DNA from: a virus
Lineage: Duplodnaviria > Caudoviricetes
Length of the DNA stretch: 56,796 bases
Reading direction: 5' to 3' (one strand)
IMG/VR virus record: IMGVR_UViG_3300025011_000055
Span: 1 to 56,796 of that record
Part shown: positions 12,233 to 44,438 of the stretch, piece after piece
Numbering within the stretch: position 1 is the stretch's first letter
Layout: every line of letters begins with the position of its first letter
Made by a program: the position numbers and the translations under genes
The notes under the pieces: model-generated
Told to the model about the DNA's origin: nothing
What the model saw: only the letters and a program-made list of their open reading frames with translations
Databases searched by the model: none

Positions 12233-12271
12233 TTAACTATATTCACGTTTCACCGTGCTTTCTTTTAATCC
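12233..12271 (-). pseudogene. Displaced older 3' end of the portal gene
   Basis: Reads GLKESTVKREYS*, versus the portal's GLKESTMKREYVS... Confidence 0.8.
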
Positions 12272-12277
12272 TAACTA

Positions 12278-12493
12278 TTATTCTTCTTTTGTTGCCACGA
12301 TCTTATTGCTGCAAGCCAAGGTTATTGTACCAGCACCCAAATGACCTACACCAAATGACATCTGATGGATTGCAGAGATAGCGCCATGCAAAACATGTCT
12401 ATCCGTGCAGATGTCTTTCTTGATGCAATCTCCCTGACCTTCAGGTGTTGCTGATGGATAATTACAACATGGTGTTACAAGTGAATATGACAT
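12278..12493 (-). CDS. Cys/His-rich inserted protein
   Basis: AAGGAG RBS; MSYSLVTPCC start; flanked by the duplicated portal 3' end. Confidence 0.6.
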   Translation of the reverse strand: MSYSLVTPCCNYPSATPEGQGDCIKKDICTDRHVLHGAISAIHQMSFGVGHLGAGTITLACSNKIVATKEE

Positions 12494-12494
12494 A

Positions 12495-14729
12495 TTATTC
12501 TCCTTGATTGTTATTCTCTGAAACATACTCTCGCTTCATTGTACTTTCTTTTAATCCACCAGGTGCTTTGCCTAAACTTTGCTGACTTCGCCCGAGTTCT
12601 AATTGACCAGAAATTTGCTTATCCTTAAGAGCTAAATCTGTAGCATCATTATCCATGTCTGCAATTGTCTTCTCTTGTTCAAGTTGTTTACCAGGAATCT
12701 CTGTCATAATCTTCTGAGTTTCCGCATTCAACTTGGCGACCTTTGCACTTAGTTCTGTAATCTCAGCCTGGAGTTTCTGCATCGCGAGTTGTTCAGCTGG
12801 ATCAGTCTGGTCTTCTGCAGGAAAGAACCTCTCAACATCTTCGATATCAAGTGCAAGTAAATACTGTCGCAAGATTTCCTGATCATTCAAACCTTGGCCT
12901 CGCAGCTCTAGCATGGCCTTCGCCTTGAGAAGCCGCTGCATCATTGTCGTGCTGTTCGGATCACTAACCGGAACAACATCGAAATCTGCACTAGAGAAGT
13001 CAGCCTGAACAATTGCCTGCTGATCATCCAGGACAACACTATATGTCATCTGATCTAAATAAAGAGCATTCAGTCTTCGTAACTTTATGAACTCCTTATA
13101 TTGACTTCGGTACAATCGCTTGTGAATTGCACTGTAGACTTGCAGCCCCTGTTCAATAAGGGCAAGTACAGACTCAGCCGGAACATTCGCACCAGGAGAA
13201 TTACCAGCAAGAATCTCTGTCATGCCGGCAAGTTCTTTACCACTCTCGATTAGCAAGCCGAGCAATTGAAAGAGAACATTACTTGGCTCACGCACTGGCA
13301 TTGGGAAGATGTTCTTGCGAAGATCGTCGCCTGTTGCATCTACTGGCTTCCACTCGCCTGACTTGACCTGAATTGATTTGCCCCTGCCAAGCTTAAGGCC
13401 TCTCCCTAGGAAACCAGACTGACGATTTGATAACGTCCCTGCATCAAGCAATTGATTAATAACTGTGTTTATGGCTGAGTTACTGCTCATCAACAGTGAG
13501 CCAAACCCCATGCCATAAAAGCCTCCATCAATCGCTGGCATGAAAATAAAGCGAGTAAAGTATTGCTCTGGGAGGATCTTAACAATTGGTCCGTCTAGAT
13601 CAACTACGCCAGATTCATCAGACTTGCGAATAATCCCATCCGTGGCAAACCGAGGAGATATGCGAACTAACTTCTGTGATTGTTCATGAACAGTTACTAC
13701 ATACGGCTCTTGATAGCCATCATTATCTAAGTCATACCAACGATGTTGTTCAAGAAACAAATGTGGAGTATCTTCATCTACATCAGCAGTCTTATCACTG
13801 GTTGCCTGACCAAGTTCAGCTACATCAAACTTGATAAAAATCCCAGAATTGATGCGCTCAACAATTTCATTATGGTACAAATAGATTCTATGAGTTACTC
13901 GTGGAGCCCTCTCCAATGATTCGGCAAAGTAATTTACAACCAAATCATCAGCAAAGACTATCTGAGATACGGACTTCCTCTCAATCGAATCGAAGTAACT
14001 CTTTTTGAATACACAACCGATTGCGGGCAAGGTAAAAAGTAGCTGGTCAACTCCTTCTTCCCAATCTTCCATTAGGGACAGAAGCTGGAAAGACATAAAC
14101 TGAGAAATTCGGTTGGCCTTATCAAACTTACGATTGTCTGGATCAGTTCCTATGACCTTACCTTTGACAACTTCATTACCTTTAATAAGCTCAGGATATG
14201 CCCTAGCAGCAAACTGGATGCAAGCATTAATTATTAATGGGTACTTAACATTAGCAACAACTTCGCCTGCATAGACTTTCTTCTTTACGAGCAGCTTAGC
14301 CAGGTCGATGATCTGCACATTGAGTGCTTCCCATTCAGTTCGGCTAGCCAAATCTAGCTTGTAGCCTTCCAGGACTTTAGTCGTAATATCTGCTAAGGTT
14401 TCCTTATTTTGTTTATCAGCAAGATTAGTGATAAGTACAACTGCTTCAGCTCTGAGAGCTTCTTTTTCCACAAGAGCAGTCGTGGTAGGATCAACTTGAA
14501 TTGGCGCTATAATATCCTCGATAGGTTCCTCAGTTGCCCAAAATGGAACTTGGCCCATGAGACTAGCTTGCTCGTCATCTGGAAGGTTTGTGCCTGTGTT
14601 CAAGGTTGAGTTGGTTCGTGTAGGCAGCTTTGCTGCTTGACCAGCTATAATTGCATTCGCCATCGGAGTCGCTGGATTGCCTGGATCAACAAGTTCCTCT
14701 ACAGGAAATTCAAAACCATTATTAGCCAT
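12495..14729 (-). CDS. Portal protein
   Basis: 744 aa, directly after TerL; FYG.G, G.LSN.QSG and C-terminal coiled-coil barrel typical of podovirus portals. Confidence 0.88.
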   Translation of the reverse strand: MANNGFEFPVEELVDPGNPATPMANAIIAGQAAKLPTRTNSTLNTGTNLPDDEQASLMGQVPFWATEEPIEDIIAPIQVDPTTTALVEKEALRAEAVVLITNLADKQNKETLADITTKVLEGYKLDLASRTEWEALNVQIIDLAKLLVKKKVYAGEVVANVKYPLIINACIQFAARAYPELIKGNEVVKGKVIGTDPDNRKFDKANRISQFMSFQLLSLMEDWEEGVDQLLFTLPAIGCVFKKSYFDSIERKSVSQIVFADDLVVNYFAESLERAPRVTHRIYLYHNEIVERINSGIFIKFDVAELGQATSDKTADVDEDTPHLFLEQHRWYDLDNDGYQEPYVVTVHEQSQKLVRISPRFATDGIIRKSDESGVVDLDGPIVKILPEQYFTRFIFMPAIDGGFYGMGFGSLLMSSNSAINTVINQLLDAGTLSNRQSGFLGRGLKLGRGKSIQVKSGEWKPVDATGDDLRKNIFPMPVREPSNVLFQLLGLLIESGKELAGMTEILAGNSPGANVPAESVLALIEQGLQVYSAIHKRLYRSQYKEFIKLRRLNALYLDQMTYSVVLDDQQAIVQADFSSADFDVVPVSDPNSTTMMQRLLKAKAMLELRGQGLNDQEILRQYLLALDIEDVERFFPAEDQTDPAEQLAMQKLQAEITELSAKVAKLNAETQKIMTEIPGKQLEQEKTIADMDNDATDLALKDKQISGQLELGRSQQSLGKAPGGLKESTMKREYVSENNNQGE

Positions 14730-14746
14730 TATTAATTTCCTGATAT

Positions 14747-14929
14747 CTAATTTTCTTCTTGATGTACAATAAGTCTTACACCATCTATGATACTATTAAC
14801 TTTTGGACAGCATATACATATAGTATCAATAATATGTGGTGTGATAGGTTTAAAAAATGTTTTAGATACAATAATAGTTGGTATTACATGTAATTCTCCA
14901 GGAATCTTATATACAGACCAACAACTCAT
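14747..14929 (-). CDS. Small AT-rich inserted hypothetical protein
   Basis: ORF between terL and portal; H..P...H...C.CCP motif. Confidence 0.45.
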   Translation of the reverse strand: MSCWSVYKIPGELHVIPTIIVSKTFFKPITPHIIDTICICCPKVNSIIDGVRLIVHQEEN

Positions 14930-14932
14930 GAT

Positions 14933-16402
14933 CTAGTATCCTGTAACCAGACTTGCTTCCTGGTGATTGTAAAGTTCGCTTTCTTCCCACGCCTGAAACT
15001 CCCAATATGGTTTCGCAATTGCTCGTTTGAGTCCAGACATAATCAAGTACCGAGTGCAGTCCATCAAATGGTCGCGGTCTTTAACTATCTGACCGTTCTC
15101 ATCCCGGCGATAAATACGAAACTCGCTAAACCAATTAACCAGCGAACCAAATACTTTCAGGCGATTAGTACTGAGCATTTGCCACACAGCATACAAGCCA
15201 GCCTCGATTGATTTGTTCGCATTCTCAAGGTCAAGACCTAACCCAAAGTATTGTTCAAAAAGTTGCTTTCCGTCATCTTGCGAACGACCATGTGCAGCTG
15301 AGTCAACCACGCCTGGAATCCAATTTCCCCGAGCCTTGATTGCATCCGCATGGATCAGTGGTAACTGTTGGCCCTGGTAATATTCGGAATATAAATAAGT
15401 TATGTTGCTGGTCGGATCTGTAGCTGCCCAAACAGTTGCAGTCTTCTTCCAGCCTACATCCAACGCATAGCAGCGAAGCCAATGATCTGGAATAGCAAAA
15501 TCTTCTACGGTGATATTACTTTCGAGGATTGGATAAATTGCACCAGCCCCAAGTTGAGGTACGCCCTTCGACCTGGCGTCTCGTTGGTGCGGAGGTAAGG
15601 CTGCCCAGAGTTTATCTTTCTGTTCTTTGGTAAGGTGTGGAGCATCGTCCCAGGTTGCCTGGATTAAGAACTTACTACCTTCTTGATTGTCTTCTATTTT
15701 GCCGTTTGGCATAAACTGAAGAACAGTATCAGTTAAGCCTTCAAGAGGAGTGAAGGTAAGCATAATTAGACCATTAGTTGTCATGGTCCGAGTTATACAT
15801 TCAGTATAGATTGGAAGTGGACATTCTTCATCCAGCCAGATTAAATCTTGCTCAGTTCCTTCAAAAGACTTTCTGCCTTCAGCATAAGACTTGATCTTAA
15901 TCCGAGATATGCCACCAGAGATATGCTTGACTAAGATCATGTCGATGGCATTAGCAACTCCGCCAGCCTTAGGACTGGTCTTTATAATATACTTTTCTGG
16001 AATCAATCCAGTCCCATACTCTTCAGGATTACCAATGAGTTTATATTGAACGATATCCCTGGCAGTGGTGCTGGTAGTTCCACATGCCCAGATGGAAACT
16101 GGTTTAGTAAATCTCTTGCCAGTCCACCAACCTGGATAGCGCCCGGTTGCATGTAGAGTTGTTTCGTACGCACCAATTCCCTCGGACTTTCCTATGCGGT
16201 TTGCAGCCATGATACAGCGTTCACTAAATGTGGAACCGGCTGCAAAGAATTGCATGTGCTTAGGATAGTTATTTCGACTCAGCTCGCCGTCATCTGGATA
16301 ATACTGGGTAATCTTATTTTGCCTGATCCGGATGTTTTTGGCTTGCAATAGTTTGAGGTATTGCTCTTTGCGGTCTCTATCAAGGTGGGAAAGATCCATC
16401 AT
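14933..16402 (-). CDS. terL: Terminase large subunit
   Basis: Walker A AANRIGKS, Walker B WLDEE, TFTP coupling motif, nuclease ALDVG and DHLMD. Confidence 0.95.
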   Translation of the reverse strand: MMDLSHLDRDRKEQYLKLLQAKNIRIRQNKITQYYPDDGELSRNNYPKHMQFFAAGSTFSERCIMAANRIGKSEGIGAYETTLHATGRYPGWWTGKRFTKPVSIWACGTTSTTARDIVQYKLIGNPEEYGTGLIPEKYIIKTSPKAGGVANAIDMILVKHISGGISRIKIKSYAEGRKSFEGTEQDLIWLDEECPLPIYTECITRTMTTNGLIMLTFTPLEGLTDTVLQFMPNGKIEDNQEGSKFLIQATWDDAPHLTKEQKDKLWAALPPHQRDARSKGVPQLGAGAIYPILESNITVEDFAIPDHWLRCYALDVGWKKTATVWAATDPTSNITYLYSEYYQGQQLPLIHADAIKARGNWIPGVVDSAAHGRSQDDGKQLFEQYFGLGLDLENANKSIEAGLYAVWQMLSTNRLKVFGSLVNWFSEFRIYRRDENGQIVKDRDHLMDCTRYLIMSGLKRAIAKPYWEFQAWEESELYNHQEASLVTGY

Positions 16403-17088
16403 TATGACCTATTAATATTATGAAAGGGATCAAATGATAGGTCTTCTAAAATTGAGGTGTCTTCCATCAGGAGGGGTTCTTCAAAATCTTCGTCAGGAAT
16501 AAATAGGCCAGCTTGTTCTTCAGCACAGAATAAATCTTCCAGAGATAAATCATCCTCGTTAGCAGACGCAGGGACAACAGCTTGGCATGACGCAAGAGGA
16601 ATGGTTGCAAATGATAAGTTGTGATGTAAGGACTTTTTAATCTCTGGAAGATTTTTACCACCAGTGCGATTGATTGCTTCTTCGATTGCAGCGATCTCAG
16701 CATCGAGTTCTTCATCAGTTTTGGTTTGCAGCGTCATGTCAATGTTCAACCGATCAGGAGCTTTATACCCATTTCGGTCGAGAACATCTTTAGCTGCATT
16801 AAATTGTACAGATGCTGGAACAGATTTGCGGGAATTAGAGTTGAGAAGGTGCTCGAATGTTGCAAGTGCTTCTTTATTGAGGCTAACCAACTTCTTTCTG
16901 ACATCTAAAGTTGCTTCGTGTGCCCTGTCTTGAAGGCCATTCAAGTAGGCTTGCCCAAGAGGTGAGCGAAGGATTGTAGATACGGATGATTGTGCCATAC
17001 CAAGACGCTCAGCAATCTCTTGGTTTTTGTACCCGTTGAACGCCATCTGGATAATGTTGCGGTGCTGAGATTTTAGCTCTTTCAACAT
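16402..17088 (-). CDS. terS: Terminase small subunit (HTH)
   Basis: N-terminal HTH (NQEIAERLGMAQSSVS); AAKDVLDR.G motif; directly upstream of terL. Confidence 0.75.
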   Translation of the reverse strand: MLKELKSQHRNIIQMAFNGYKNQEIAERLGMAQSSVSTILRSPLGQAYLNGLQDRAHEATLDVRKKLVSLNKEALATFEHLLNSNSRKSVPASVQFNAAKDVLDRNGYKAPDRLNIDMTLQTKTDEELDAEIAAIEEAINRTGGKNLPEIKKSLHHNLSFATIPLASCQAVVPASANEDDLSLEDLFCAEEQAGLFIPDEDFEEPLLMEDTSILEDLSFDPFHNINRS

Positions 17089-17642
17089 GGCTGGCAGCTT
17101 TACAGGTAAGATAGGTTAAATGGATGTTGTGAACCTTTTGGAATTGTCCTATTTTATGTTGACATATTATGGTAGAAAGGTCAATATAAAAATGCATAAG
17201 GACTTAATTTTCCTGCTTTTTCCATAATGACGGCAATCATATTGAGCCTACTATAATATTATAAGGGCTGCCTGTTTGTTACTGTTCACAGTTCTGCTAA
17301 TAGTGACAAGTTGAATAGCTGAATGATTAGAATTGTTCCCGACTTTAGGTTCATTTGTGAACACTGGATGGATAGGTGTCGATTGACGGCAATGTAAAAT
17401 TGCTTGTTTCCGCAACTCTATATAGAAACCCTAATCCACTACAGAGGGATCGAGGCATCTACATGCGGGCAGGTCACACACAAGAAAGATTGTTCCCTCC
17501 GCTACGCGGACACACGATTAACAGGTACAGGTCATGAGCAGGGATTCCTGGCAAACTGTGGAATATTTCAATGTGGAAATATTTTAATATGATGGTCCTG
17601 GCAGAATGACAAGCACTATATAAATGGTGAATAGAATAACTC

Positions 17643-17671
17643 TTGACAACCTGGACATGGGGAAGTATTGT
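17643..17671 (+). promoter_or_regulatory. Sigma70-type early promoter
   Basis: TTGACA-17-TATTGT; a further TTGACA-17-TATACA lies at 17723-17751. Confidence 0.65.
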
Positions 17672-17816
17672 AATTGGGAAAGGCAGGACAAGTGGAAAAT
17701 GAATCAAGGTGGAAAATAATTCTTGACAAAGCTTTCCACAAGTGATATACAGTAATTGACAGGCTGGAAATGGTTCTAGCCACAAGTAGTTAAACCCATT
17801 ATAAAGGAGTTTTATC

Positions 17817-18227
17817 ATGGCACAATCAATCTTCGTTACATTGGATACCCTTAAGACAGAGACTTCAGTCCCGGCGGTTGGAACGATGGTACAGCACACT
17901 TTGCCACGGAGCATCTTCCCGACCAGTGAACAGTTTGCAGATGAACAGAAATTGGTTGCCTGGGCAACTGAAGCTGGATGTCTGCATGCCTGTTTGCAAA
18001 AAGGTATTCAGGCAAAGTTGATAGATGCACGTGCAACCTTTAAAGCAACGAAGAAAGGTGCGGAATGGTCGCCTGAACTTGGTCAAAGCAATGTAGACGG
18101 TATGAAATGGGAAGCCGCCGAACGTCCGGCAAGCGCAAAGAGTGACGAGCAAAAAGCGATTGAGGCAATGTCCAAATTGACGCCGGAACAACTGGCTGCG
18201 ATTATTGCAGGTATGTCGGCTAACTAA
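17817..18227 (+). CDS. First early gene, hypothetical
   Basis: Strong AAAGGAG RBS; downstream hairpin at 18240-18272. Confidence 0.8.
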   Translation: MAQSIFVTLDTLKTETSVPAVGTMVQHTLPRSIFPTSEQFADEQKLVAWATEAGCLHACLQKGIQAKLIDARATFKATKKGAEWSPELGQSNVDGMKWEAAERPASAKSDEQKAIEAMSKLTPEQLAAIIAGMSAN

Positions 18228-18287
18228 CCATATTAACCTTGCCGGATATATTCGCTTTGAGTATGTCCGGCATACTATGAGGATATT

Positions 18288-18503
18288 ATGAAAATCTCCA
18301 GATTGAAAAAAGATATTATCAAAGGGATAAATATGGCCAAAGATATTAAAATGGCAACAACAAAGGACGATATGAAAATCGTTCGTTGCATACTTGGTCA
18401 GGATGAAAGAAATGTAATACAAGTTATAAAATTTCTTGGGCTTTTCCCACCTGAATGGAACAAAGTGATTAGACTTGGGATGTGGTTAGAATTGACAAAG
18501 TAA
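18288..18503 (+). CDS. Hypothetical protein
   Basis: GAGGA RBS. Confidence 0.5.
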   Translation: MKISRLKKDIIKGINMAKDIKMATTKDDMKIVRCILGQDERNVIQVIKFLGLFPPEWNKVIRLGMWLELTK

Positions 18504-18534
18504 TATATTGACTAACAATCTTGCTTTAACCTTT

Positions 18535-18572
18535 GCCCGATTTAGTCCTTGTGACTATTTCGGGCTTTTCTT
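18535..18572 (+). terminator. Intrinsic terminator
   Basis: GCCCGA..TAGTC / GACTA..TCGGGC stem followed by TTTTCTT. Confidence 0.75.
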
Positions 18573-18577
18573 ATTGC

Positions 18578-18615
18578 TAATGCCTGACAACCTGAATAAT
18601 GCCTGACAACCTGAA
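18578..18615 (+). repeat. 19-bp perfect tandem duplication
   Basis: TAATGCCTGACAACCTGAA x2. Confidence 0.9.
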
Positions 18616-18678
18616 TTGCATGGATAGTGATTAGATGATGGTTGTATGGGCGTTCGATACTGAACAGGAATAACACGA

Positions 18679-19244
18679 CCAACCGTAACCATGTGGTGCC
18701 AAACGTAACCAAACGTAACCAAAGGTGGACACTTGGGCACACATAATTGGCACCAAACGGACACTAAACATAACCACCTGGCATCAGTAGGCACCGGCTG
18801 GACACGTATAATTGGCACCATCTGGCACCGCATTAACATCAACTGGCACCAGATGGTTACAGGTAAGCTAAAAAAAGGTAATCATTTCAAAGAGTTACAA
18901 TCCTGTGTGTCCAAAAGTGGCCAATAGTGTCCAACCGTACACCTCCCCCCTGTGTCGTGAGTGTTGAAAGGGTAGTCTGTTTTAGTATTTAATTTTTTTA
19001 TTAAATACTTAAATACCAGGTCCAGAGAGGGTGGGGAGGTGTACGCACGGACACTTTTGACGCCAACCGTACACAGCCCTAAAATTCTCCAACAATATCA
19101 ACCACTTACCCAAGCAACCTGTCACCAACCGGACACCACCTGTCACCACAAGGCACCAGCTGGACACCAAAAACCGTCACCAGCCGTCACCAAACCATTG
19201 ACAACCGGCACCAAACCATGCTATACTGTCACCAACCGGACACC
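18679..19244. repeat. Iteron-like repeat region around a palindromic AT core (candidate origin or packaging site)
   Basis: GNCACC arrays; 13-bp inverted repeat 18936-18948/19033-19045; AT palindrome 18984-19009. Confidence 0.7.
19198..19227 (+). promoter_or_regulatory. Sigma70-type promoter
   Basis: TTGACA-18-TATACT with TG extension. Confidence 0.65.
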
Positions 19245-19294
19245 CTTGCAAGCCACCTATGCTTGCTAAACAACCATTCATAAGGAGTCACAAT

Positions 19295-19873
19295 ATGTCA
19301 AGCCCTCACATGTCCTTTCGCCTAAACCATTACCAACTCGCCAAAGCATTAAGAATCCTAGTAACCTTGGAACCAGATCAACCAATACCATCATTATCCC
19401 AGGCAGCCAAGCTAATAATCATCGACTGGATATCAAAGCATTCCATACACACATCGTTAGAGTGTGCTCAAGCAGACATAAAAGCCATTGAGACAATCAT
19501 TGCATTACCAATTGATCGAATCGACCCATACACAACCATTCGGCAGATTATGGCCCAAGCAAAGGCGCAATCTCAACCATTCCAGGCACAACAAGAATTT
19601 CAGATAAAAGAACAGGCAAAGAAGTCAGCCCAGCAGATACAAAGAGATATCGAAGATGCCAGACTCTTTGAACAGCTCAGACGTGAACATGCATTAAAAG
19701 AAGCACAAGAAGCAAAAGATAAAGATATTGAGGCACAAATAGAGTTATCTTTAAACACAAGAAAACCACTTCCCAAGCCATCAGACTTCCATGATCCAAA
19801 CATCACCGAATCAGAAATATCAACAATAACTGACTTCAGTCCTCCGAAAGATTGGATTGATAGCGAGGAATAA
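19295..19873 (+). CDS. Putative ribbon-helix-helix-like DNA-binding protein with coiled-coil tail
   Basis: TAAGGAG RBS; N-terminus paralogous to 23015-23320. Confidence 0.65.
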   Translation: MSSPHMSFRLNHYQLAKALRILVTLEPDQPIPSLSQAAKLIIIDWISKHSIHTSLECAQADIKAIETIIALPIDRIDPYTTIRQIMAQAKAQSQPFQAQQEFQIKEQAKKSAQQIQRDIEDARLFEQLRREHALKEAQEAKDKDIEAQIELSLNTRKPLPKPSDFHDPNITESEISTITDFSPPKDWIDSEE

Positions 19874-20132
19874 GCACAACGAATGAACGGGCATAACGTG
19901 GTGGAATTACACGGTTTTTTCCGTTATGCCCGTTACAACGGCCACCACACGCTACACGCCACGTTTCCAACCGTCCATGCAACCATACCCGTTGCCCCGT
20001 TCCGGCCAGCCACAGCGATCCTACGCCATTCTAGCCGCTATTCCGCCCAACCGCCATACTATATACACGCCACCGACCAACTACCACAACGTAGCACACG
20101 GCACAACCGTAAACCGCCTACGTGTTTTTCTG

Positions 20133-20161
20133 TTGACAAACCCTCTTGTATACGGTACACT
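20133..20161 (+). promoter_or_regulatory. Sigma70-type promoter
   Basis: TTGACA-17-TACACT. Confidence 0.6.
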
Positions 20162-20419
20162 ATACCTATAATATACCTATACTTTTTCACCAGACAGCCA
20201 ACCATCACCTGGAGCTATCATGCGACTCATGCAGGCAAACTATTATCTTGTAATTCGCCGACTGGAAAATACCACCAGCAGAGGAACAATCGTTGCAGGA
20301 TATAAAACCAAAGAACAGGCAGAGCAAGACAAAATTGACTATCTAAAGCGGATGCCAAATCATAACGTCTGGGTAATAGCCAGAGAAGATTATTAATCAC
20401 ATCAAAATAGGAGAACATC

Positions 20420-20686: not shown

Positions 20687-20689
20687 CTT

Positions 20690-20977: not shown

Positions 20978-21034
20978 CCAACCCAAGCAACGAAGTCGCC
21001 CGCCTGTAACCACCAGCCATAAGGAGAACAAATC

Positions 21035-21367: not shown

Positions 21368-21413
21368 ATTGTACAGTTTTTAGATTAATATTCCTATCTA
21401 AGGAGAACAACTA

Positions 21414-22188: not shown

Positions 22189-22635
22189 ATGAAAAAACTC
22201 TGTCCAGTTTGCAACACCATCAATGAAGCAATCGGCTTCAATTTAACGGAAAAAGAAATTCATAACATTAGCAAAATTGGTTTGTCTGAGCAGCTTTGCA
22301 AGACTTGCTACCAGAAAGAACTTTCCACCAGGTTAGAGTCAACAAAATCTGAACTCATCCCACTGAACAAAGAGAAAGAAATTACTCAGACAGCTTACCA
22401 TAAAGCATACGAAGCCTGGAAAGATATTGCCAGCATTTATCAAGCTATCGATTACAATCTCAACATGAATAAACATGCAATCAAAATGAAAGAATCAACC
22501 AAAATTAGGGTGCCAAAAACTAGTGAGCCAGTCAACATTGAGCTTCTTTGTCAGCAGATTCTTTCCACTCTAAGTAAAGAACAACAACAGGCTATCATTC
22601 AAACCTTTAAAGCAACTCAAACTATTGGTAACTAA
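22189..22635 (+). CDS. Zn-finger plus coiled-coil hypothetical protein
   Basis: CPVC and CKTC motifs; GGAG RBS. Confidence 0.65.
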   Translation: MKKLCPVCNTINEAIGFNLTEKEIHNISKIGLSEQLCKTCYQKELSTRLESTKSELIPLNKEKEITQTAYHKAYEAWKDIASIYQAIDYNLNMNKHAIKMKESTKIRVPKTSEPVNIELLCQQILSTLSKEQQQAIIQTFKATQTIGN

Positions 22636-23012
22636 AATGACAATCAAAGACTTAGTTGTTGATCATCCATACTATTGCTCAGATAATAATTATTGCTCAA
22701 GAGAAGCTAGTCAAAATTGGGATACAATGACTGCCTTCTTAGATGAAATGGAAGATGCAGATATTGATATGAATTTAGTTTTTAGATGGGATATAAAAGA
22801 AAAGAGGGCTGAAGAAACAGATAATGTAACTGGTGAATATTATGCTGAGATATTCATAATGCATCAGCGTAAAGGATTATTTTGTCCCCACTTTGTTAAA
22901 ACCATTACTGAAGATGAAGTAGCCAGATTTATTAGTTATTTACAGAAACATAAAGAAAGATTAGATGAAATTTGGAAACCATTATAAAATAACTCAAACT
23001 ATTGGTAACTAA
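22614..23012 (+). repeat. 22-bp perfect direct repeats flanking one gene
   Basis: AACTCAAACTATTGGTAACTAA at 22614-22635 and 22991-23012. Confidence 0.92.
22637..22987 (+). CDS. Inserted AT-rich hypothetical protein
   Basis: HPYYC...D.DMNLVFRWD...QRKG pattern; lies between the direct repeats. Confidence 0.7.
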   Translation: MTIKDLVVDHPYYCSDNNYCSREASQNWDTMTAFLDEMEDADIDMNLVFRWDIKEKRAEETDNVTGEYYAEIFIMHQRKGLFCPHFVKTITEDEVARFISYLQKHKERLDEIWKPL

Positions 23013-36324: not shown

Positions 36325-36333
36325 GTTAAAGCT

Positions 36334-37764: not shown

Positions 37765-37765
37765 T

Positions 37766-37978
37766 ATGAGAAAAGATAATAGATATGTTATTGAATTACT
37801 AAGTGGAATACTTAAAAATCCACAATTACATATTGCTGGAGATGATTTTGATGTAAATGATGTTGTATGGTTAGATGGTGATACTGTAATGCCAGTATAT
37901 GATAGAACAAAAGAAATATATGGAGTTATTGCTGCAAAAGGTATAAAAGGAAAACCTGTTTTAGTTGCTGCAAAATAA
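37766..37978 (+). CDS. AT-rich hypothetical protein
   Basis: GGAGGG RBS. Confidence 0.5.
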   Translation: MRKDNRYVIELLSGILKNPQLHIAGDDFDVNDVVWLDGDTVMPVYDRTKEIYGVIAAKGIKGKPVLVAAK

Positions 37979-37999
37979 AATTAGTTCATGGATTTTATT

Positions 38000-38269
38000 A
38001 TGACAAAATATAAAGTAGGCCAACTATCAGAACAGAAAGCTCCCATCACGCCTGGCTCTAACTGTTGCCTACACAAAAACATCGTGCCACTCGAAATAGG
38101 TTTTGCCTCCAAGAGCTGGCCAAACGGCTATAAGAATGAGCCAAACTATAACTTTGCTGTCAGCATGATAAGTGCAAATGTTATACGAGTTCGTTCTTAC
38201 CTTTGCTTGGATTGCAAACAAGAAATAAAGGCTCCTAATCCAGGAGCATTGACAAAGGATAGAATATAA
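38000..38269 (+). CDS. Hypothetical protein
   Basis: CCLH and CLDC motifs. Confidence 0.55.
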   Translation: MTKYKVGQLSEQKAPITPGSNCCLHKNIVPLEIGFASKSWPNGYKNEPNYNFAVSMISANVIRVRSYLCLDCKQEIKAPNPGALTKDRI

Positions 38270-38460
38270 AAATGAAATTAAGAATTTTAAGAAAATATTC
38301 TAAACAATTAGATTGCCATCCTATGGATGTTAGGTATGGTGGACCAAATCCAATGAAAATAGTAAATTATGATACATTACAATATTTTAATGAAGCAACT
38401 TCTGAATGGATAGATGTTCCTATAATAGAAGAAAAAGAATTAAATTAAAAGGAACTTACA

Positions 38461-40986
38461 ATGATAATTCCTAGCATATCAACTACAGCAACTCCGCAGA
38501 AAGAAGGTTCTTTCGATTGCTTGGCTGTAGAGTGCGCTCCAACTGATAACATACTCACGTCTGAGATTGCTATGGTTGGCGAAGCTCCAGGTGAAATTGA
38601 AGTCCTGAAGAACGAACCATTCGTTGGACCAACAGGTTCTCAGCTTAATCGCATCTGTGCAGCCGTCAGACTAGCTAGATATAAAATCTATCTCACTAAT
38701 GCTTGCAAAGCTAAGTTTCCCAAAAACAATACTGCTGTCTTATGGACAGATAAGGGCTATCGCCATCCAGACTGGTCTAAATTGCAGGCAGCACTAATTA
38801 ATGAGCTTGCACAATTTCCAGGCAAAGTCATAATGTTGCTTGGTGCAACTCCAATGAGACTTTTGCTGGATGAGCCACGCTATGATTCAATCACAAAATA
38901 TCGTGGATCATTCTACCATGCAGAAGACTTTCCACATTTGAAAGAAAAACTGGCTGGAAAGATAATAGGTTTGTCTTATCATCCATCTTTCACCCTCCCA
39001 TATGGTCAGCCCATCCACTTTTATACAATGATCGCAGACTTTACGAAAGCCCTACGAATCATTGAAGATCCAGAATTGCTTACCGATAATGTGGAAATAA
39101 AAATCAAGCCTAGCTTTGAAGAAATCATGCAGTTCTATGCATTGATTAAGACAAAACAATATGTGGCATTTGACATTGAAGCTACGCCAGAATTTATTAC
39201 CTGCTACTCATTGGCAGTATATCACGATAATAAGATCCTGTCCATGTCTGTTCCTCTAATGAACAACCAGGGCAACTATTGGGCAACAGCAGAAGAGATA
39301 AAAATATGGACTGGCTTAGCTGAAATACTTAATGATGAAGCCATAGGTAAGATTTGTCAAAATGGAATGTTCGATATCATGTTTACTTTCCGTACCATGA
39401 TGATTAAAACAGATAACTTTTATTTTGATACAATGCTTGCGCAGCATATATGTTATACAGAACTTCCAAAGGGACTTGATTATCTAACTTCAACTTACAC
39501 TTACTATCCCTATTACAAAGACGAAGGAAAGCAATCACACCTTAAGGCCATCAAGAACTGGCCACAATACTGGACTTATAATGCCAAAGACTCAGCTTAC
39601 TTATTACCCATCACGGAGAAACTCCTTGAAGAATTAGGTGAATTCGATTCTATGGATGCTATGGATTATACAATGAATCTTCATAAGCCACTCATGGAAA
39701 TGGAATTCAATGGCATTCTGACTGATACAGATGGAATTGAAAAGATCAAATCTGAGTATGGAGTCAAGCTGATTGAGCTTCAAGCAGATCTGAATAAACT
39801 CGCAGGCAAGGAAATCAATCCTGGTTCAGCGAAACAAATGGTTGCATACTTCTACGGAACTTGTATGATTAAACCATATGTGAATCGCAAAACTGGATCA
39901 GTTACATGCGATACTGTAGCTTTGCACAGAATTGCAAAGAAAGATATTAAAGGTTCTGAAGAAGCTAGGATCATCATAAAGATTCGTAAGTATCAAAAGA
40001 TGGTATCTACTTACTTTAATATTCAAGTGGATGATGATAAGCGATTACGATGTAATCATAAAATATCTGGAACAGTCTCTGGCAGGATTGCTACTGAAAA
40101 GACTTATTTCGGTACTGGATCGAATCTTCAGAATCAGCCTTATGTTTTTAAATATTATCTCATTGCTGATGAAGATTGGATTCTCTGTGAATGTGATCTT
40201 GCCAAGGCAGAGGCTCATGTAGTTGCATACCTTACTCAAGATGCCAACATGATCCAGTCGTTTGAATCTGGTATTGATGTGCATAGTTTTAATGCAAGTA
40301 AGATATTCAATGTTCCGATTGAAGAAGTAATTCATGAAGCAAAAACTAAAAAGGCTGATCAGAAATCTACCATGCGTTATATGGGAAAAAAGGTAGTTCA
40401 TGCCTCGAACTATGCAATGGGTCCACAGACATTCTCTGACAATCTAGCGGCTGAGGAAATCTTCAAGTCACAGTCAGAGTGTAAGAGATTACTTGATATG
40501 TACTCTGACCGTTTTCCTGGACTGAAACGCTGGCATAGATCAATCGAAGAAGAAGTCCAGAAAAATCGAGTTCTCTATAACTTATTTGGCCGGCCTCGCA
40601 GGTTCTTAGGTGAAATGAATGCAGCATTATTCAGAAATGCTTATAGCTACAAGCCTCAGTCAACCGTTGCAGAGTTGCTCAATCGTGGAATGATTAAAGT
40701 AGTGACTGATCCTAGGCTAGGCAAAGATGGCTTTGACATTCGATGTATGACAACTGTTCATGATTCGTTTGTATTCAGGTTTCATAAGAGTCAGATTCCA
40801 AACCTATTACAAATCTTGTTAATTATCAAAGATCATTTGACACATACATTCACATATAAGGGAAAGAGTTTTACCATTGGTCTGGATGCTAAGGTGGGTA
40901 CCCAATGGGCCGGCAACACAGCTGATATAAGTAATTTCAATCAAGAAAGTATAGATCAAGCAATAAATAAAATAGGAGTTTTATAA
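38461..40986 (+). CDS. polA: Family A DNA polymerase with N-terminal family-4 uracil-DNA glycosylase domain and 3'-5' exonuclease
   Basis: UDG: VGEAPG, FVG, TN, HPS. Exo: FDIE, QN..FD, YN.KD. Pol: motif A DLAKAE, motif B R...K...H...Y, motif C VHDS. Confidence 0.93.
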   Translation: MIIPSISTTATPQKEGSFDCLAVECAPTDNILTSEIAMVGEAPGEIEVLKNEPFVGPTGSQLNRICAAVRLARYKIYLTNACKAKFPKNNTAVLWTDKGYRHPDWSKLQAALINELAQFPGKVIMLLGATPMRLLLDEPRYDSITKYRGSFYHAEDFPHLKEKLAGKIIGLSYHPSFTLPYGQPIHFYTMIADFTKALRIIEDPELLTDNVEIKIKPSFEEIMQFYALIKTKQYVAFDIEATPEFITCYSLAVYHDNKILSMSVPLMNNQGNYWATAEEIKIWTGLAEILNDEAIGKICQNGMFDIMFTFRTMMIKTDNFYFDTMLAQHICYTELPKGLDYLTSTYTYYPYYKDEGKQSHLKAIKNWPQYWTYNAKDSAYLLPITEKLLEELGEFDSMDAMDYTMNLHKPLMEMEFNGILTDTDGIEKIKSEYGVKLIELQADLNKLAGKEINPGSAKQMVAYFYGTCMIKPYVNRKTGSVTCDTVALHRIAKKDIKGSEEARIIIKIRKYQKMVSTYFNIQVDDDKRLRCNHKISGTVSGRIATEKTYFGTGSNLQNQPYVFKYYLIADEDWILCECDLAKAEAHVVAYLTQDANMIQSFESGIDVHSFNASKIFNVPIEEVIHEAKTKKADQKSTMRYMGKKVVHASNYAMGPQTFSDNLAAEEIFKSQSECKRLLDMYSDRFPGLKRWHRSIEEEVQKNRVLYNLFGRPRRFLGEMNAALFRNAYSYKPQSTVAELLNRGMIKVVTDPRLGKDGFDIRCMTTVHDSFVFRFHKSQIPNLLQILLIIKDHLTHTFTYKGKSFTIGLDAKVGTQWAGNTADISNFNQESIDQAINKIGVL

Positions 40987-41480
40987 TGCAAGATAAAATA
41001 GACCTTATAGACTTTAAAGCTTTTTCAAACTTTGAAAAAAGATTTTTATCTCTTATGCCTGAAAACTCTTTTAATGATTATGATAGTTGTTGGTTATGGC
41101 AAGGTAAATTGGAGACTACAGGTTATGGAAGAATAGTATGTGGAAATAAACGTTATGGAGTACACCAACTTGCTTATATGATATTTAATGGGGATATTCC
41201 ACAAGGAAAAATAGTTAGGCATACTTGTGATAATAAAAATTGTATGAATCCTAAACATTTAGTCTTAGGTAATCATCAGGATAATGCTTTAGATTTAATG
41301 CAAAGAAAATCACCAATATTTGCACAGCTTAATGAAGAAGCAGTTAAGGTTATTAAATGGATGTTAAAGTATAAAAATCATCATGGATTATCTAGAAAAC
41401 TAGCTTCAGTATATAATGTTCATTTTACAACAATATCTGATATTAAAAGAAATAAAACTTGGTATTGGGTAAATGTATAG
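40986..41480 (+). CDS. Free-standing HNH homing endonuclease
   Basis: CWLW.G...GYG...H..AY...VRHTCDN..C.NP.HL..G...DN; C-terminal HTH; AT-rich. Confidence 0.88.
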   Translation: MQDKIDLIDFKAFSNFEKRFLSLMPENSFNDYDSCWLWQGKLETTGYGRIVCGNKRYGVHQLAYMIFNGDIPQGKIVRHTCDNKNCMNPKHLVLGNHQDNALDLMQRKSPIFAQLNEEAVKVIKWMLKYKNHHGLSRKLASVYNVHFTTISDIKRNKTWYWVNV

Positions 41481-41537
41481 ATCAGTAAGTTCACTCAGGA
41501 AGATTGTGATAAAGCTATTGAAAAGATAGGATTCTAA
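41481..41537 (+). pseudogene. Displaced older 3' end of polA
   Basis: ISKFTQEDCDKAIEKIGF*, versus polA ISNFNQESIDQAINKIGVL*. Confidence 0.82.
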
Positions 41538-41772
41538 TTATGATAACTCAAAGATATCAAAAGAAAGAATTTTGTATTGCAATGAATTGTCCAAGACTAA
41601 TGAAAAGAAGTTTAAAATGTAAAACTAAATCTTGTATCTATTCTGCAAAACAGTTTCATCATTGGTTAAATGAAAATGATTTTTGTATAGCTAAGTGTAT
41701 TAAATCAATTTAAGAGATAACTAATGGCGAGGCCATTCAACAATCGTATGTCGCTATTCAAGGAACCTTTTC

Positions 41773-43044
41773 ATGTCGAGGCAATTAGATAATTGGTTGG
41801 CACATTATATGAAGTACACACAGCGAACAGAGCCTCCAGAACTTTATCATCTTTGGAGCGGACTAACAGCCATTAGTTCTGCCTTGCGAAGAAAGTGCTA
41901 TTGTAACTGGGGCGCATTGCGAGGTCATGTCTATCCTAATTTATTCGTATCTCTTGTCGGTCCACCTGGGGGACGGAAAGGCACAGCCATGAAAATTGCA
42001 AAAAGCTTTGTGCAAAAACTAGACGTTAATATCGGCGCAGATTCGCTAGGCTCAACCCAGGCATTGTATAGAGAACTCATGGACAGCGAAGATACTTATG
42101 TTGATCATGCTGGGTTTACTCGTAAGCATAAGAGTGTATCAATCTGGTCAGAAGAATTTCAAGTCTTCTTAAACGACAGAGACCAAATGCTCCTAGCATC
42201 CCTGACTGACCTGTTTGATTGTGCAGATACTTGGAAGTATAAAACTTTAGCAAGAAAGACTGAAGACATATCCAATTGCTGGCTAACGCTCTTTGGCTGC
42301 ATAACTCCTAGTCTCTTGCAATCTAAACTGAGTCAAGACGCTGTTGGTGGTGGCCTAATCTCCCGGATCATTTTCGTAGTTGGCCAGGGTCCCAAGCAAA
42401 GAAGAGCCTTGCAGTTTTTAACTGAAGAAGAGGAAGAGACACAAAAGAATTTAGAAAACGACCTGCAAGAAATTGCAAACTTATCCGGACAGTTCACCCT
42501 AAGTAAGGATTTTCTTAAAACTTATGTGCGTTGGTATGAGCAAGATTATGACGAGTCAGGTGTACCAAGTGAGCGATTCTTAGGCTATAATCATAGAAGA
42601 CCACTGCATTTGAATAAGGTCTGTATGTTGGTTTGTGCTGCCGAGTCTGACGACATGATAATTACAGCTGAACACTTCGAGCAAGCCTTAGCAATAATGC
42701 AAGCAACAGAACTTGAAATGCCAAACGCGTTCTATGGACTTGGTTTATCCAGTCAGGCTAACATCTATGCAAAGATACTTTCATTCATTGATAATCACGA
42801 ATCTTTTGAATGGACAGAACTGGTTAGAAACTTTCACCTAGATGTAGATAACATTCCTCAGCTACGAGGTTATGTTGAAATGGCTGAGCAGTCTGGAATA
42901 CTCAAAGCCGAGAATTCTGCCACTACTTGCATGTATACCACAATTCGTAAGCAACACAAAGTTCGTGATCCAACATATCTTGACAGAACAGTATTTAGGT
43001 TGATGGATAGGAATGTTATTAAAAATCAAATGGAGAAAAACTAA
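41773..43044 (+). CDS. DUF3987-like P-loop ATPase (putative replicative helicase)
   Basis: YPNL...LVGPPGGRKGTA, EEF, L.DLFD and GG..SR motifs. Confidence 0.72.
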   Translation: MSRQLDNWLAHYMKYTQRTEPPELYHLWSGLTAISSALRRKCYCNWGALRGHVYPNLFVSLVGPPGGRKGTAMKIAKSFVQKLDVNIGADSLGSTQALYRELMDSEDTYVDHAGFTRKHKSVSIWSEEFQVFLNDRDQMLLASLTDLFDCADTWKYKTLARKTEDISNCWLTLFGCITPSLLQSKLSQDAVGGGLISRIIFVVGQGPKQRRALQFLTEEEEETQKNLENDLQEIANLSGQFTLSKDFLKTYVRWYEQDYDESGVPSERFLGYNHRRPLHLNKVCMLVCAAESDDMIITAEHFEQALAIMQATELEMPNAFYGLGLSSQANIYAKILSFIDNHESFEWTELVRNFHLDVDNIPQLRGYVEMAEQSGILKAENSATTCMYTTIRKQHKVRDPTYLDRTVFRLMDRNVIKNQMEKN

Positions 43045-43045
43045 A

Positions 43046-43261
43046 ATGACTGATAATCAATTAGGTGTAATAGTAGATAAATTAGAAGAAATTAGATGTT
43101 GTCTTATTGACATAGAAGAGGCTATAGATAAAAAGAGTAATTCAAAAACAGCTTTTATAGAAATTAAAGAATTTAAAAAATTATTTTTTGAAAGATTAGA
43201 GTTAAAAACTGGTTGGGGAAGAAATGAAATTAAATCAATTGTTGAAGAAATTTTAAATTAA
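43046..43261 (+). CDS. Inserted AT-rich hypothetical protein
   Basis: GGAG RBS; KTGWGRNE motif. Confidence 0.55.
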   Translation: MTDNQLGVIVDKLEEIRCCLIDIEEAIDKKSNSKTAFIEIKEFKKLFFERLELKTGWGRNEIKSIVEEILN

Positions 43262-43273
43262 TTGGAGAACTAA

Positions 43274-43897
43274 ATGACACCAGCTACAAAAGTACTATTC
43301 TTTGACACTGAAACTTCTGACTTTATTAAAAAAGCTCTGCCTGCTAATGATCCCGAGCAGGCCTGGACAGTACAGATCGGAGCAATTCTTGCCAGCCAAG
43401 AAGAAGAATTTGATCAAATGAATGTCATCATCAAAAGTAATGGCCGGTCAATGAATTATTATGCACAAGAAGTGCATGGCATTACCATTGAACGAGCCGA
43501 CCAAGAAGGAATAGATGAACTAATTGCTGCTGAACAATTTGGCCTAATGCTCCGACAGGCAGATTTGGTTGTATGTCATAACTTTGCCTTTGATTGGAAC
43601 TACGTTTACCAGATGATGGAACGCAACTTGGAAGAGTTGTCAGACCTGGCGAGAAGTGCATTTTATCTTGACCTGCCAAACCATTGTACCATGAAAGATA
43701 AGGCTGTGGTAAAAATGTGTGGATTGAAAAACAAGGCTGGACGTGCAAAATGGCCCAAGCTAACCGAGTTGCATGAACACTTATTTGGTGAAAGATTTGA
43801 TGGAGCACATGACGCGCATGCAGATATCAGTGCAACTAAGAGATGCTTTTTTGAATTGGTGAATCGAGGAATTGTTACTCCGAACCTGGAGGATTGA
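43274..43897 (+). CDS. DEDDh 3'-5' exonuclease (DnaQ-like)
   Basis: FFDTET, HN..FD and AHDA.AD motifs. Confidence 0.9.
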   Translation: MTPATKVLFFDTETSDFIKKALPANDPEQAWTVQIGAILASQEEEFDQMNVIIKSNGRSMNYYAQEVHGITIERADQEGIDELIAAEQFGLMLRQADLVVCHNFAFDWNYVYQMMERNLEELSDLARSAFYLDLPNHCTMKDKAVVKMCGLKNKAGRAKWPKLTELHEHLFGERFDGAHDAHADISATKRCFFELVNRGIVTPNLED

Positions 43898-43898
43898 A

Positions 43899-44096
43899 AT
43901 GACTATGGATAAAATGGTAATGATATCTTACTTGCGAAGCCCATACGGTATTGACGAAAATGAATTACGTGCAGCAAGATTACAAGCTGCTGATGAACTT
44001 GAAAGACTTTATAAGATTGAAAAAGGCTTGAAAGATCTTGTATCAAAAATAGAAAAACATAAAGATGATTTAAAAGGAGAAAACTATGTTGGATAA
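43899..44096 (+). CDS. Hypothetical protein
   Basis: GGAGG RBS; YLRSPYG..AADELERL. Confidence 0.55.
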   Translation: MTMDKMVMISYLRSPYGIDENELRAARLQAADELERLYKIEKGLKDLVSKIEKHKDDLKGENYVG

Positions 44097-44358
44097 TAAT
44101 GAAGCTGCAATGGCAAAAGGAATGACATGTAAAGAATCATTAGAAGATATAGCTGCTAGGATAAAGAAACAGCTTGATATACATAAAAATTTATACATAC
44201 CACTTGTTAAATATTTAGAATCAGATCAAGGATATAATTTTAATTCTGAAGAAAGAAAAACTTTATATGCTCTTGTAGGAAGAATATCTATGAAAGTGCC
44301 AAGACTTGAAGCTGAATATCAAGCTTATCTAGCTAGGATTGAGGCAAGTGAAAAGTAG
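44086..44358 (+). CDS. AT-rich hypothetical protein
   Basis: AAGGAG RBS. Confidence 0.55.
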   Translation: MLDNNEAAMAKGMTCKESLEDIAARIKKQLDIHKNLYIPLVKYLESDQGYNFNSEERKTLYALVGRISMKVPRLEAEYQAYLARIEASEK

Positions 44359-44438
44359 AATATAAACAAATAATATAAAAGCCATTACTAAATCTAATGG
44401 AATGGCTTTTAGTATATAATTATCAATGGAGCTTAACT

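Follow-up and report, generated by a model that had tools for sequence, protein, structure and literature searches.

Accessory genes between new and displaced ends of the preceding gene in a groundwater phage genome

Mobile open reading frames (mORFs) of fungal mitochondria provide a described precedent for genes that settle at the 3' end of another gene. According to the relevant passages of PMC3630166, mORFs in Glomus atp6, atp9, cox2 and nad3 enter near the 3' end of the host gene and bring along an in-frame C-terminus of foreign origin, so that the native one lies downstream and is closer to the relatives than the inserted one; Allomyces atp6 is a further case cited there. Here we describe a comparable anatomy in a tailed phage, in which accessory genes ('cargos') lie between a new 3' end of the preceding gene and a displaced copy of its last codons, the orphan tail. 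The DNA analysed, hereafter the window, is the complete IMG/VR record IMGVR_UViG_3300025011_000055, a linear groundwater sequence of 56,796 bases estimated to represent 85% of the full genome.

Phages offer further points of reference. In T4-type phages, small ORFan genes are gained, lost or replaced between close relatives by PeSL shuffling via short flanking repeats and with no dedicated integrase, and the pertinent parts of PMC2839356 draw an analogy to integron cassettes and describe mini-circles. The free-standing endonucleases of T-even phages, as portrayed in sections of PMC2988022, sit between conserved genes and undergo co-conversion of their flanks, and illegitimate, one-sided repair of double-strand breaks there uses microhomology for joining. 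That T4 review contains no discussion of duplicated host-gene ends (the string 'duplicat' is absent from its text), and the passages on duplication consulted in a paper on an ICP1 endonuclease do not concern host-gene ends. Red-beta, Rad52-like and Sak4 annealing proteins are described in parts of PMC5928155, PMC2327257, PMC3945230 and PMC5499656 as recombining with relaxed or short homology. A literature search for 'C-terminal duplication', 'carboxy-terminal duplication' and 'C-terminal replacement' gave no phage paper among the matches listed.

Displaced gene ends at the portal, polA and 22189 loci

Duplicated tails were evaluated by local alignment of gene tails, with 60 random windows as the null. 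The tail of the portal gene (GLKESTMKREY..., ending in GLKESTMKREYVSENNNQGE; tails are quoted here up to their stop codon) recurs as GLKESTVKREYS past an open reading frame (ORF) of 71 amino acids (aa), with a score of 55 compared with a null maximum of 31 (z=13.1). The pair, consisting of a 33-nucleotide (nt) repeat and a 39-nt orphan, was also picked up as direct-repeat family D2.

12495-14729, minus strand: portal gene, assigned by tblastn to phage portals
12525-12557, minus strand: functional copy of the portal repeat, followed by VSENNNQGE; a foreign, long-type tail
12278-12493, minus strand: portal cargo, a 71-aa Cys-rich ORF (MSYSLVTPCC...) with no family match
12233-12271, minus strand: orphan portal tail GLKESTVKREYS, its stop 9 nt ahead of the next ATG (gene 12056-12223)

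The polA tail, ISNFNQESIDQAINKIGVL, recurs as ISKFTQEDCDKAIEKIGF past an HNH_3 ORF, and here the local-alignment score was 56 with a null maximum of 37 (z=8.0).

40927-40986, plus strand: polA replacement tail, a foreign allele identical to the orphan at 36/51 nt
40986-41480, plus strand: free-standing HNH endonuclease gene, the cargo (Pfam HNH_3, 1.6e-13; PHROG HNH families)
41481-41537, plus strand: orphan polA tail ISKFTQEDCDKAIEKIGF, 57 nt, its stop 2 nt ahead of the next ATG (41540)

The third case, at the 22189 ORF, is most evident in the DNA. Exact direct repeats at 60-1500 nt spacing were counted and compared with 200 Markov-1 simulations; the window holds seven of at least 14 nt, compared with a simulated mean of 0.56. 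The longest, an exact 22-nt repeat (22614 and 22991) that extends to 28 nt at 93%, flanks the cargo behind the 22189 ORF, and no simulation exceeded 18 nt. The tail match is only marginal at the protein level (z=2.9; p=0.00017 in a stop-anchored scan, 0.017 after correction).

22608-22635, plus strand: tail of the 22189 ORF (..KATQTIGN), repeat copy 1
22634-22987, plus strand: cargo, a 117-aa ORF (phrog_7880, function unknown)
22985-23012, plus strand: repeat copy 2, orphan ..ITQTIGN, its stop 2 nt ahead of the next ATG (23015)

A first-pass annotation of this DNA had proposed that 3'-end duplication recurs at seven genes. These three stand above chance, and the tail matches of the other four (ligase, DUF3987, terL and ParB-MTase) do not do so within the window alone, either by local alignment or in the earlier stop-anchored scan of 91 ORFs. 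Local alignment replaced that scan, whose stop anchoring is too strict for portal and polA, where tail and orphan are of unequal length.

Which copy is resident can be judged from relatives that lack the cargo. The portal region had zero blastn matches among 50,697 phage records, and the best isolate portal is 41% identical at the protein level. Because their protein matches are at most 41% identical, isolate phages are unusable for empty-site tests, and IMG/VR contigs were used as relatives instead. Close relatives are plentiful there (67 portal loci and 37 polA loci). The portal comparison set comprised 50 loci, with tail identity compared in 47 relatives, and the polA set comprised 37 relatives; five near-complete relatives of 60-68 kb (G001-G005), which share about 85-87% DNA identity with the window across roughly 38-43 kb, were compared in full. 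The runs that contain the sequence are groundwater metagenomes, two of them labelled soil, and contigs with and without cargo occur together in the same groundwater runs.

At portal, the orphan is identical at 33/33 nt to the functional tails of loci L021-L024, whereas the best relative of the new tail reaches only 29/33 nt (L029, a long-tail allele); the two copies in the window agree at 27/33 nt. Of the 47 relatives compared, 26 have tails nearer the orphan, 16 nearer the new tail, and five are tied. Empty sites with a short, orphan-type tail (...REYS or ...REYK) account for 25 of the 50 loci, and in these a 55-aa MDEL... gene follows within about 10 nt. More distant relatives have long portal tails (...KREYGLETNNQGE) that abut the next gene. 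The Cys-rich cargo is present in four loci (L009, L018, L030 and L049), and others carry Tad2-like or different small genes. Homologues of this cargo with 76-79% identity and the same type of C-terminus are found in unrelated, guanine-cytosine (GC)-rich phage contexts (L144, L145). In the relatives that carry it the orphan is missing and the cargo C-terminus is altered, whereas the window's cargo has the family-typical C-terminus, which suggests from the sequences that the window represents a younger state of the portal locus. We also considered the L018-type arrangement as a plain orphan deletion; the alignment is compatible, yet the junction is not clean.

Two further observations concern the portal neighbourhood. 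In L039 (about 2200-4250), the last ~50 nt of portal and the start of an 84-aa gene recur ~1.5 kb past the portal stop; the DNA between the copies is unmatched in the window, the 84-aa gene is incomplete in its first copy, and the repeat is either a larger duplication or a mobile-element insertion. Tad2-like (Thoeris anti-defence) genes form variable cargo behind portal or the 55-aa gene in L026, L028, L036, L051, L013 and L034. The window's own copy is absent from G001 and G003, and different cargos at this Tad2 junction share their first ~20 nt (ribosome-binding site plus ATGGA, read LRRTQM.).

11790-12044, minus strand: Tad2-like accessory gene, variable cargo behind the 55-aa gene (Pfam PF11195, 6.4e-21)

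The polA orphan matches the tails of L079 and L104 at 49/51 nt, the best among relatives, and 31 of the 37 relatives are nearer the orphan than the new tail. The six nearer the new tail reach 41/51 nt at best, and the closest of them are HNH-bearing loci (L082, L083 and L101) with the same order of new tail, HNH gene and orphan. The HNH gene and the orphan occur together in four of four HNH-bearing polA loci. In L080 and L081 the cargo is a 64-aa non-HNH ORF whose reading frame continues into 41 nt duplicated from the polA tail, and at least nine cargo types occur at this site among relatives. Upstream of the tail, the best identity to relatives drops from 55-59/60 to 50/60 and then 45/60 across the last ~120 nt. 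This fall and the link to HNH would fit endonuclease-triggered one-sided repair of the kind outlined for T4 in parts of PMC2988022. A separate feature was seen in L097 (4001-7450), where the polA match covers 3450 nt rather than 2517, an insertion of ~930 nt within polA that raises the question of an intein, intron or endonuclease gene.

The 22189 site is likewise polymorphic, with two empty sites and three different cargos among six genomes. G002 and G003 are empty, with the 28-mer present once, a different cargo of about 115 aa occupies the site in G001 and G004, and the window's arrangement is repeated exactly in L135-L137 and in contigs of runs X1, X4 and X5. Homologues of the window's cargo occur at 56% identity in unrelated GC-rich phages. 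A decayed orphan behind the G001/G004 cargo was proposed by eye (11/14 nt with one gap) and rejected as too short to count. In G005, a NADAR-domain gene lies at this junction (13651-14088; L131).

Short remnants and the junctions of six genomes

Empty sites in relatives changed the assessment of three of the four short cases, ligase, DUF3987 and terL, in favour of a displaced tail. The ligase ends in ...EEQLFNLLR in all four empty genomes (G001, G002, G004 and G005), whereas in the window and G003 it ends in ...EEQLFTLLQKEQN, followed by a 69-aa cargo and a displaced LFNLLR. The displaced tail is intact in G003 and has lost its stop in the window, and the insert is bounded at both junctions by the 7-nt microhomology CTTTTTA.

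34823-35061, plus strand: insert within the ligase 3' end, comprising the new tail TLLQKEQN and the 69-aa cargo (34850-35059); absent in G001, G002, G004 and G005
35062-35083, plus strand: displaced ligase tail (LFNLL..), matching the functional LFNLLR of the four empty genomes

A site missing from the earlier list shows the same anatomy. The 43872 ORF has a replaced tail, KDDLKGENYVG, followed by a cargo and a displaced NGA, and all five near-complete relatives are empty here and end in ..EKHNNGA.

44063-44436, plus strand: replaced tail of the 43872 ORF, cargo (44086-44358) and displaced NGA (44425-44436)

Remnants at DUF3987 and terL are shorter. DUF3987 is empty in G001, G002 and G005, where its end NQMEKN overlaps the next ATG, and the window's two flanks overlap by 27 nt on that single copy. 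G004 carries a different cargo at this site with a similar shortened remnant of tail and ribosome-binding site behind it. The terL tail, ..TGY (VTGY), abuts the portal ATG in the empty loci L008, L029, L033, L042/43, L051, L052 and L060; cargo-bearing genomes keep a look-alike sequence before the portal start, and G005 has a 14-nt copy behind its own cargo.

43024-43050, plus strand: DUF3987 tail, ribosome-binding site and ATGAC, copy 1
43046-43261, plus strand: DUF3987 cargo, 71 aa, 22% GC
43255-43281, plus strand: degenerate DUF3987-tail orphan, overlapping the start of the RNase_T-like gene (43274)
14933-16402, minus strand: terL
14747-14929, minus strand: terL cargo, a 60-aa ORF between terL and portal with no family match, GC 0.279
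14730-14749, minus strand: decayed terL-tail remnant that forms the portal leader (reads ISGN and two stops), recognised by comparison with relatives

As a separate observation, G004 has a tandem duplication of 17 nt of the DUF3987 tail, including the stop, before its cargo (6100-6135 in its own coordinates, reverse complement), which shows directly that junction sequences duplicate in this phage family.

ParB-MTase stays ambiguous. Empty relatives exist (L170, L172), and in cargo-bearing genomes the leader is indistinguishable from a generic ribosome-binding site with an AT-rich spacer.

37766-37978, plus strand: 70-aa ORF behind ParB-MTase, a variable cargo with no demonstrable orphan

The related expectation, that empty sites carry the orphan rather than the new tail, held for portal (25 of 50 loci), polA (31 of 37 closer) and ligase (four of four), and the comparison is not discriminating at the 22189 ORF, DUF3987 and terL.

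An all-against-all comparison of the window and G001-G005 yielded 253 clean insertion events, which fall into 134 separate intervals. Taking the largest overlap of the flanks for each interval, values were below 0 nt in 56, 0-4 nt in 16, 5-9 nt in 24, 10-14 nt in 8, 15-19 nt in 8, 20-29 nt in 16, 30-49 nt in 5, and at least 50 nt in one. In 30 intervals, 9-120 nt of the empty genome's upstream-gene 3' end was found beyond the insert; judged by eye, about 18 of these junctions are real displaced tails, four are ambiguous and eight are not. Displaced tails occur behind 11 genes: portal, terL, the 22189 and 23015 ORFs, the PD-(D/E)XK nuclease, the Sak4-like gene, ligase, polA, DUF3987, the 43872 ORF and one further gene in G004. 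Those behind the PD-(D/E)XK exonuclease, the Sak4-like gene, the 23015 ORF and terL were seen in relatives, and thus the anatomy recurs beyond the genes first listed.

A specificity of the process for 3' ends is not supported. Other junctions in the same genomes repeat cassettes of ribosome-binding site and start codon, or about 45 nt of promoter-like sequence (TTGACA...TATACA), and one clear 5'-end duplication was found in G004 (55 nt of the gene downstream of ParB-MTase). A systematic 5'-end control was discarded, as longest-start ORF calls and indels in a 2456-aa gene inflated its values. The phenomenon is cassette turnover at gene junctions, of which 3'-end duplication is the commonest coding footprint and not the sole one.

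Several observations were made elsewhere in the window, which holds structural genes (portal, terL and the 2456-aa gene) on the minus strand and an early/replication block on the plus strand (UvrD-like helicase, PD-(D/E)XK nuclease, AAA_24/Sak4-like, DUF669, NAD-dependent ligase, N6_N4 methylase, polA, DUF3987, RNase_T-like exonuclease and ThyX). Rfam identifies a 101-nt tRNA at 28720-28820 (39.3 bits), where ARAGORN reports none, and its first 20 nt recur exactly at 30217-30236, behind the 29939-30205 ORF. The tRNA segment (28711-28834) is absent in G002 and G005, and the repeat segment (30199-30377) is absent in G005; the repeat at 30217 may represent the 5' end of a tRNA that was displaced in the way of the protein-gene orphans. 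ThyX (46556-47342 region) has a 31-aa C-terminal extension with two CxxC pairs, followed directly by an HNH_3 gene; the extension, which is missing in G005 (..EEFL) and G003 (..NSFL), is not a replacement and has no orphan. The 2456-aa product is a modular repeat protein that varies among relatives, with indels of 500 and 1272 nt at 49821-52207 (minus strand) and 165-nt periodic repeats at 52598-52965. The divergent structural/early switch (17637-19244) contains clusters of short direct repeats, including a 19-nt unit in tandem (18578-18615) and CTGTCACCAACCGGACACC at 19119 and 19226, and promoter-like repeats (TTGACA...TATACA) flank small inserts at this switch in G003, G004 and G005.

47390-54760, minus strand: 2456-aa gene

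Origin of the displaced ends

The cargos are 60-164 aa in size. Among them are HNH endonucleases and a Tad2-like protein, and one relative adds a NADAR protein; all others either lack a family or belong to PHROGs of unknown function. The earlier description of them as usually AT-rich and mostly not nucleases was borne out: six of seven have 22-31% GC compared with 39% for the window (the portal cargo has 42%), and Pfam and PHROGs gave no nuclease domain for the cargos at portal, the 22189 ORF, ligase, DUF3987, terL or the 43872 ORF. The window has three HNH_3 endonuclease genes (27672-28283, 40986-41480 and 46725-47342). The portal and 22189 cargos, with their homologues in unrelated phages, move between phage groups, and the junction hot spots seem to gather candidate counter-defence genes. 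The exonuclease, Sak4-like and DUF669 module that had been named as a possible driver is also present, on the plus strand at 28965-31973, and judged from its genes it is a plausible engine.

28965-29936, plus strand: PD-(D/E)XK nuclease (PDDEXK_1; Pfam 3.8e-16)
30398-31204, plus strand: AAA_24/Sak4-like (Pfam 2e-15)
31551-31973, plus strand: DUF669 (Pfam 3e-4)

With moderate confidence, we favour the explanation that relatives infecting the same cell exchange cassettes at gene junctions with translational coupling, and that the cargo brings the replacement tail. The window's relatives form a population about 86% identical in DNA that recombines freely. In cargo-free neighbours, the stop abuts or overlaps the next start at terL/portal, DUF3987, ParB-MTase and the 22189 site, and the ribosome-binding site of the next gene usually lies in or against the last codons. 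Because neighbouring genes are coupled in this way, a new gene can enter only inside or just after those codons. All six window orphans stop 0-9 nt ahead of the next start codon, and therefore entry within the last codons, with the old codons kept as a leader, is what selection would permit.

A viable insert would have to supply its own end for the upstream gene. One kind of insert would bring a homologous tail from a donor that already has a cargo behind the same gene (portal, polA, the 22189 ORF, terL and DUF3987); the other, at ligase and the 43872 ORF, would end the upstream gene by reading through the leader that belongs to the cargo. In either event the resident tail would be left downstream, untranslated and directly before the next gene's start. 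We infer for each event a gene conversion, or a recombination that is one-sided, between diverged relatives in the same infected cell, with the left junction formed by homology in the upstream gene or tail and the right junction by short homology or microhomology. The polA event was probably initiated by the HNH homing endonuclease, and at other sites the phage's own exonuclease and Sak4-like annealing functions may act. Orphans would later decay to the part beside the ribosome-binding site or be deleted, and the older remnants at terL and DUF3987 keep only that part.

The two kinds of insert differ at their junctions. At portal and polA the orphan is resident and the new tail foreign, so the copies were not identical at birth, and target-site duplication and prior tandem duplication are thereby excluded at these two genes; there, cargo and new tail arrived together. 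The new tails of ligase and the 43872 ORF are read-through of the cargo leader (AAGGAG...ATG) with junction homology of 7 nt or none, the signature of illegitimate joining. For non-nuclease cargos, one-sided recombination, template switching and small-circle integration are inseparable here.

Several observations limit the evidence or weigh against exchange at coupled junctions as a general account. The stop-anchored scan gave a corrected p<0.03 for five of 91 ORFs, roughly the chance number, with an unrelated pair as its top match, and by itself fails to separate signal from noise. The count of displaced tails is a reading of 30 junctions with no blind criterion, and most cargo insertions leave no orphan; at polA, orphans are present in only five of 37 loci, the remaining cargo types have none, and the co-converted tract is only mild. 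No such tract is visible upstream of the portal tail in the comparison with relatives. The portal orphan is of a kind found only in the window, the sole match among the 50 relatives' loci being the larger ~1.5-kb duplication of L039. An exact search for the junction of portal cargo and orphan matched no further contig in the viral and metagenome collections, in searches that may have excluded the window's own record, and thus the portal case rests on one assembly. In addition, a leader role fails to explain the 39 nt retained at portal, because the ribosome-binding site follows the orphan stop. At the 22189 ORF, DUF3987 and terL the copies hardly differ or the orphan is decayed, and since the empty sites match the upstream functional copy equally or better, the direction of the event is not fixed. 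Finally, the short remnants at terL, DUF3987 and ParB-MTase overlap ribosome-binding-site and spacer motifs that are functionally convergent.

A related proposal, which we entertain as a tentative possibility, is capture that is independent of nucleases. The mobile units would consist of the preceding gene's last codons, a ribosome-binding site and an ORF; the phage's own exonuclease and Sak4-like protein would anneal them at 14-57 nt of tail homology, and the displaced tail would be kept as the translation start region of the next essential gene. Such units would be a phage counterpart of integron cassettes with essential-gene ends as attachment sites, and several of the captured genes would be counter-defence genes (Tad2-like, NADAR).

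Campbell-type integration, the circular route suggested in the first-pass annotation, in which a small circle carrying the cargo and an upstream-gene tail undergoes a single recombination with the resident tail and doubles the homology, is an unlikely source of these arrangements, although direct repeats flank the cargo just as a single crossover predicts. At their 5' edge the portal copies are identical over a block of 14 nt, and a crossover there would yield an orphan that is resident throughout and a new copy that is foreign throughout, as seen; the 22-nt repeat at the 22189 ORF could both excise and re-integrate its cargo, and mini-circles are documented for PeSL elements of T4-type phages in the parts of PMC2839356 concerned. 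However, there is no circle junction to support it: a back-joining, circle-type joint was absent from the 15 joints listed for contigs of four groundwater runs, a result that favours neither side given that contigs are unable to reveal circles. Identity falls about 50 nt upstream of the polA repeat, which a longer conversion tract fits better than a crossover within 57 nt, ligase and the 43872 ORF have no homologous repeat beyond 7 nt or none, and the origin of the first tail-bearing circle is unexplained.

We give still less weight to the reading that all cases are homing endonuclease footprints, whereby a present or since-lost HNH enzyme cut the site, the donor tail and trailing DNA were copied, and non-nuclease cargos hitchhiked or replaced a former endonuclease gene. 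It draws on the three HNH_3 genes, the link of the polA duplication to HNH in all four HNH-bearing loci, and the ThyX extension before an HNH gene. In G002, moreover, terL and portal are separated by an HNH ORF, and the match to the 3' end of the window's terL breaks off early (1-118 of 156); the same anatomy is established for mitochondrial endonuclease ORFs in the portions of PMC3630166 cited above. On the other hand, six cargo sites (portal, the 22189 ORF, ligase, DUF3987, terL and the 43872 ORF) lack both a nuclease match and an adjoining endonuclease gene in the window, and the 64-aa cargo of L080 and L081 is non-HNH and comes with the 41-nt duplication of the polA tail.

As a general explanation, it is very improbable that the tails resemble each other by chance, or that ribosome-binding and spacer sequences have converged for functional reasons, with no duplication event at all. 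This reading is refuted for portal, polA and the 22189 ORF, which lie far beyond the controls, and for ligase, whose orphan in G003 reproduces the empty-site tail codon for codon; orphans also match the functional tails of relatives across 33-51 nt. It stands for ParB-MTase, whose leader looks like a generic one, and in part for terL and DUF3987, given that none of the four short cases exceeds chance on the window's sequence alone and that several insertion junctions overlap only via AAGGAG...ATG motifs.

Prophages that integrate into tRNA or protein genes classically replace the 3' end of the gene. Even so, a transposase target-site duplication, or an integrase insertion carrying a replacement 3' end, would account for the direct repeats that flank the inserted DNA but is already inconsistent with the data, because the repeats vary from 7 to 57 nt instead of being identical and of fixed length, the portal and polA copies differ by 18-30% (27/33 and 36/51 identical) while the orphan is identical or near-identical to relatives, the 60-164-aa cargos have no such domains, and neither Phage_integrase (PF00589) nor Resolvase (PF00239), the tyrosine and serine recombinases of integrases and integrons, matched in six frames of the 85%-complete record.

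Overall, the observation in the first-pass annotation is partly confirmed and its interpretation partly supported. The arrangement shows how a tightly packed, lytic-type phage genome gains and swaps accessory genes, likely counter-defence genes included, without losing essential ones: the insert gives a substitute gene end, and the old end is a scar that dates and orients the event. Such scars mark recent acquisitions, resident and donor alleles, and hot spots straight from metagenomic contigs. If the route indeed needs no homing endonuclease, C-terminal replacement, so far a trait of organelle endonuclease ORFs, would become a general mode of phage gene flow, and it would suggest how engineered phages could be given payload genes while translational coupling is left undisturbed.

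Comparison with known systems

The mitochondrial mORFs agree point for point with the polA/HNH locus. A foreign in-frame C-terminus with the native one downstream and nearer the relatives is found at portal, polA and ligase, whereas the inserted gene is a homing endonuclease at polA only and not at the six other sites. The phage cases differ further from the mORFs in that the remnants abut the next start codon, the host is a phage, and the duplicated pieces measure 12-57 nt as opposed to roughly 50-280 nt.

Resemblance to PeSL shuffling lies in the promoter-like (~45 nt) and ribosome-binding-site/start repeats at some junctions. The repeats that define the present finding are instead coding 3' ends of the upstream gene, and the cargos do not lie between repeated promoter and stem-loop cassettes. 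Intronless homing in T-even phages fits the polA/HNH locus and the 7-nt ligase junction, but that model does not cover non-nuclease cargos. Phage annealing proteins would allow exchange where diverged sequences share 14-57 nt of homology, and the window's AAA_24 (Sak4-like), PD-(D/E)XK and DUF669 products are candidates for this role. The arrangement described for this phage thus extends two known processes, endonuclease-associated C-terminal replacement and the shuffling of cassettes at short repeats.

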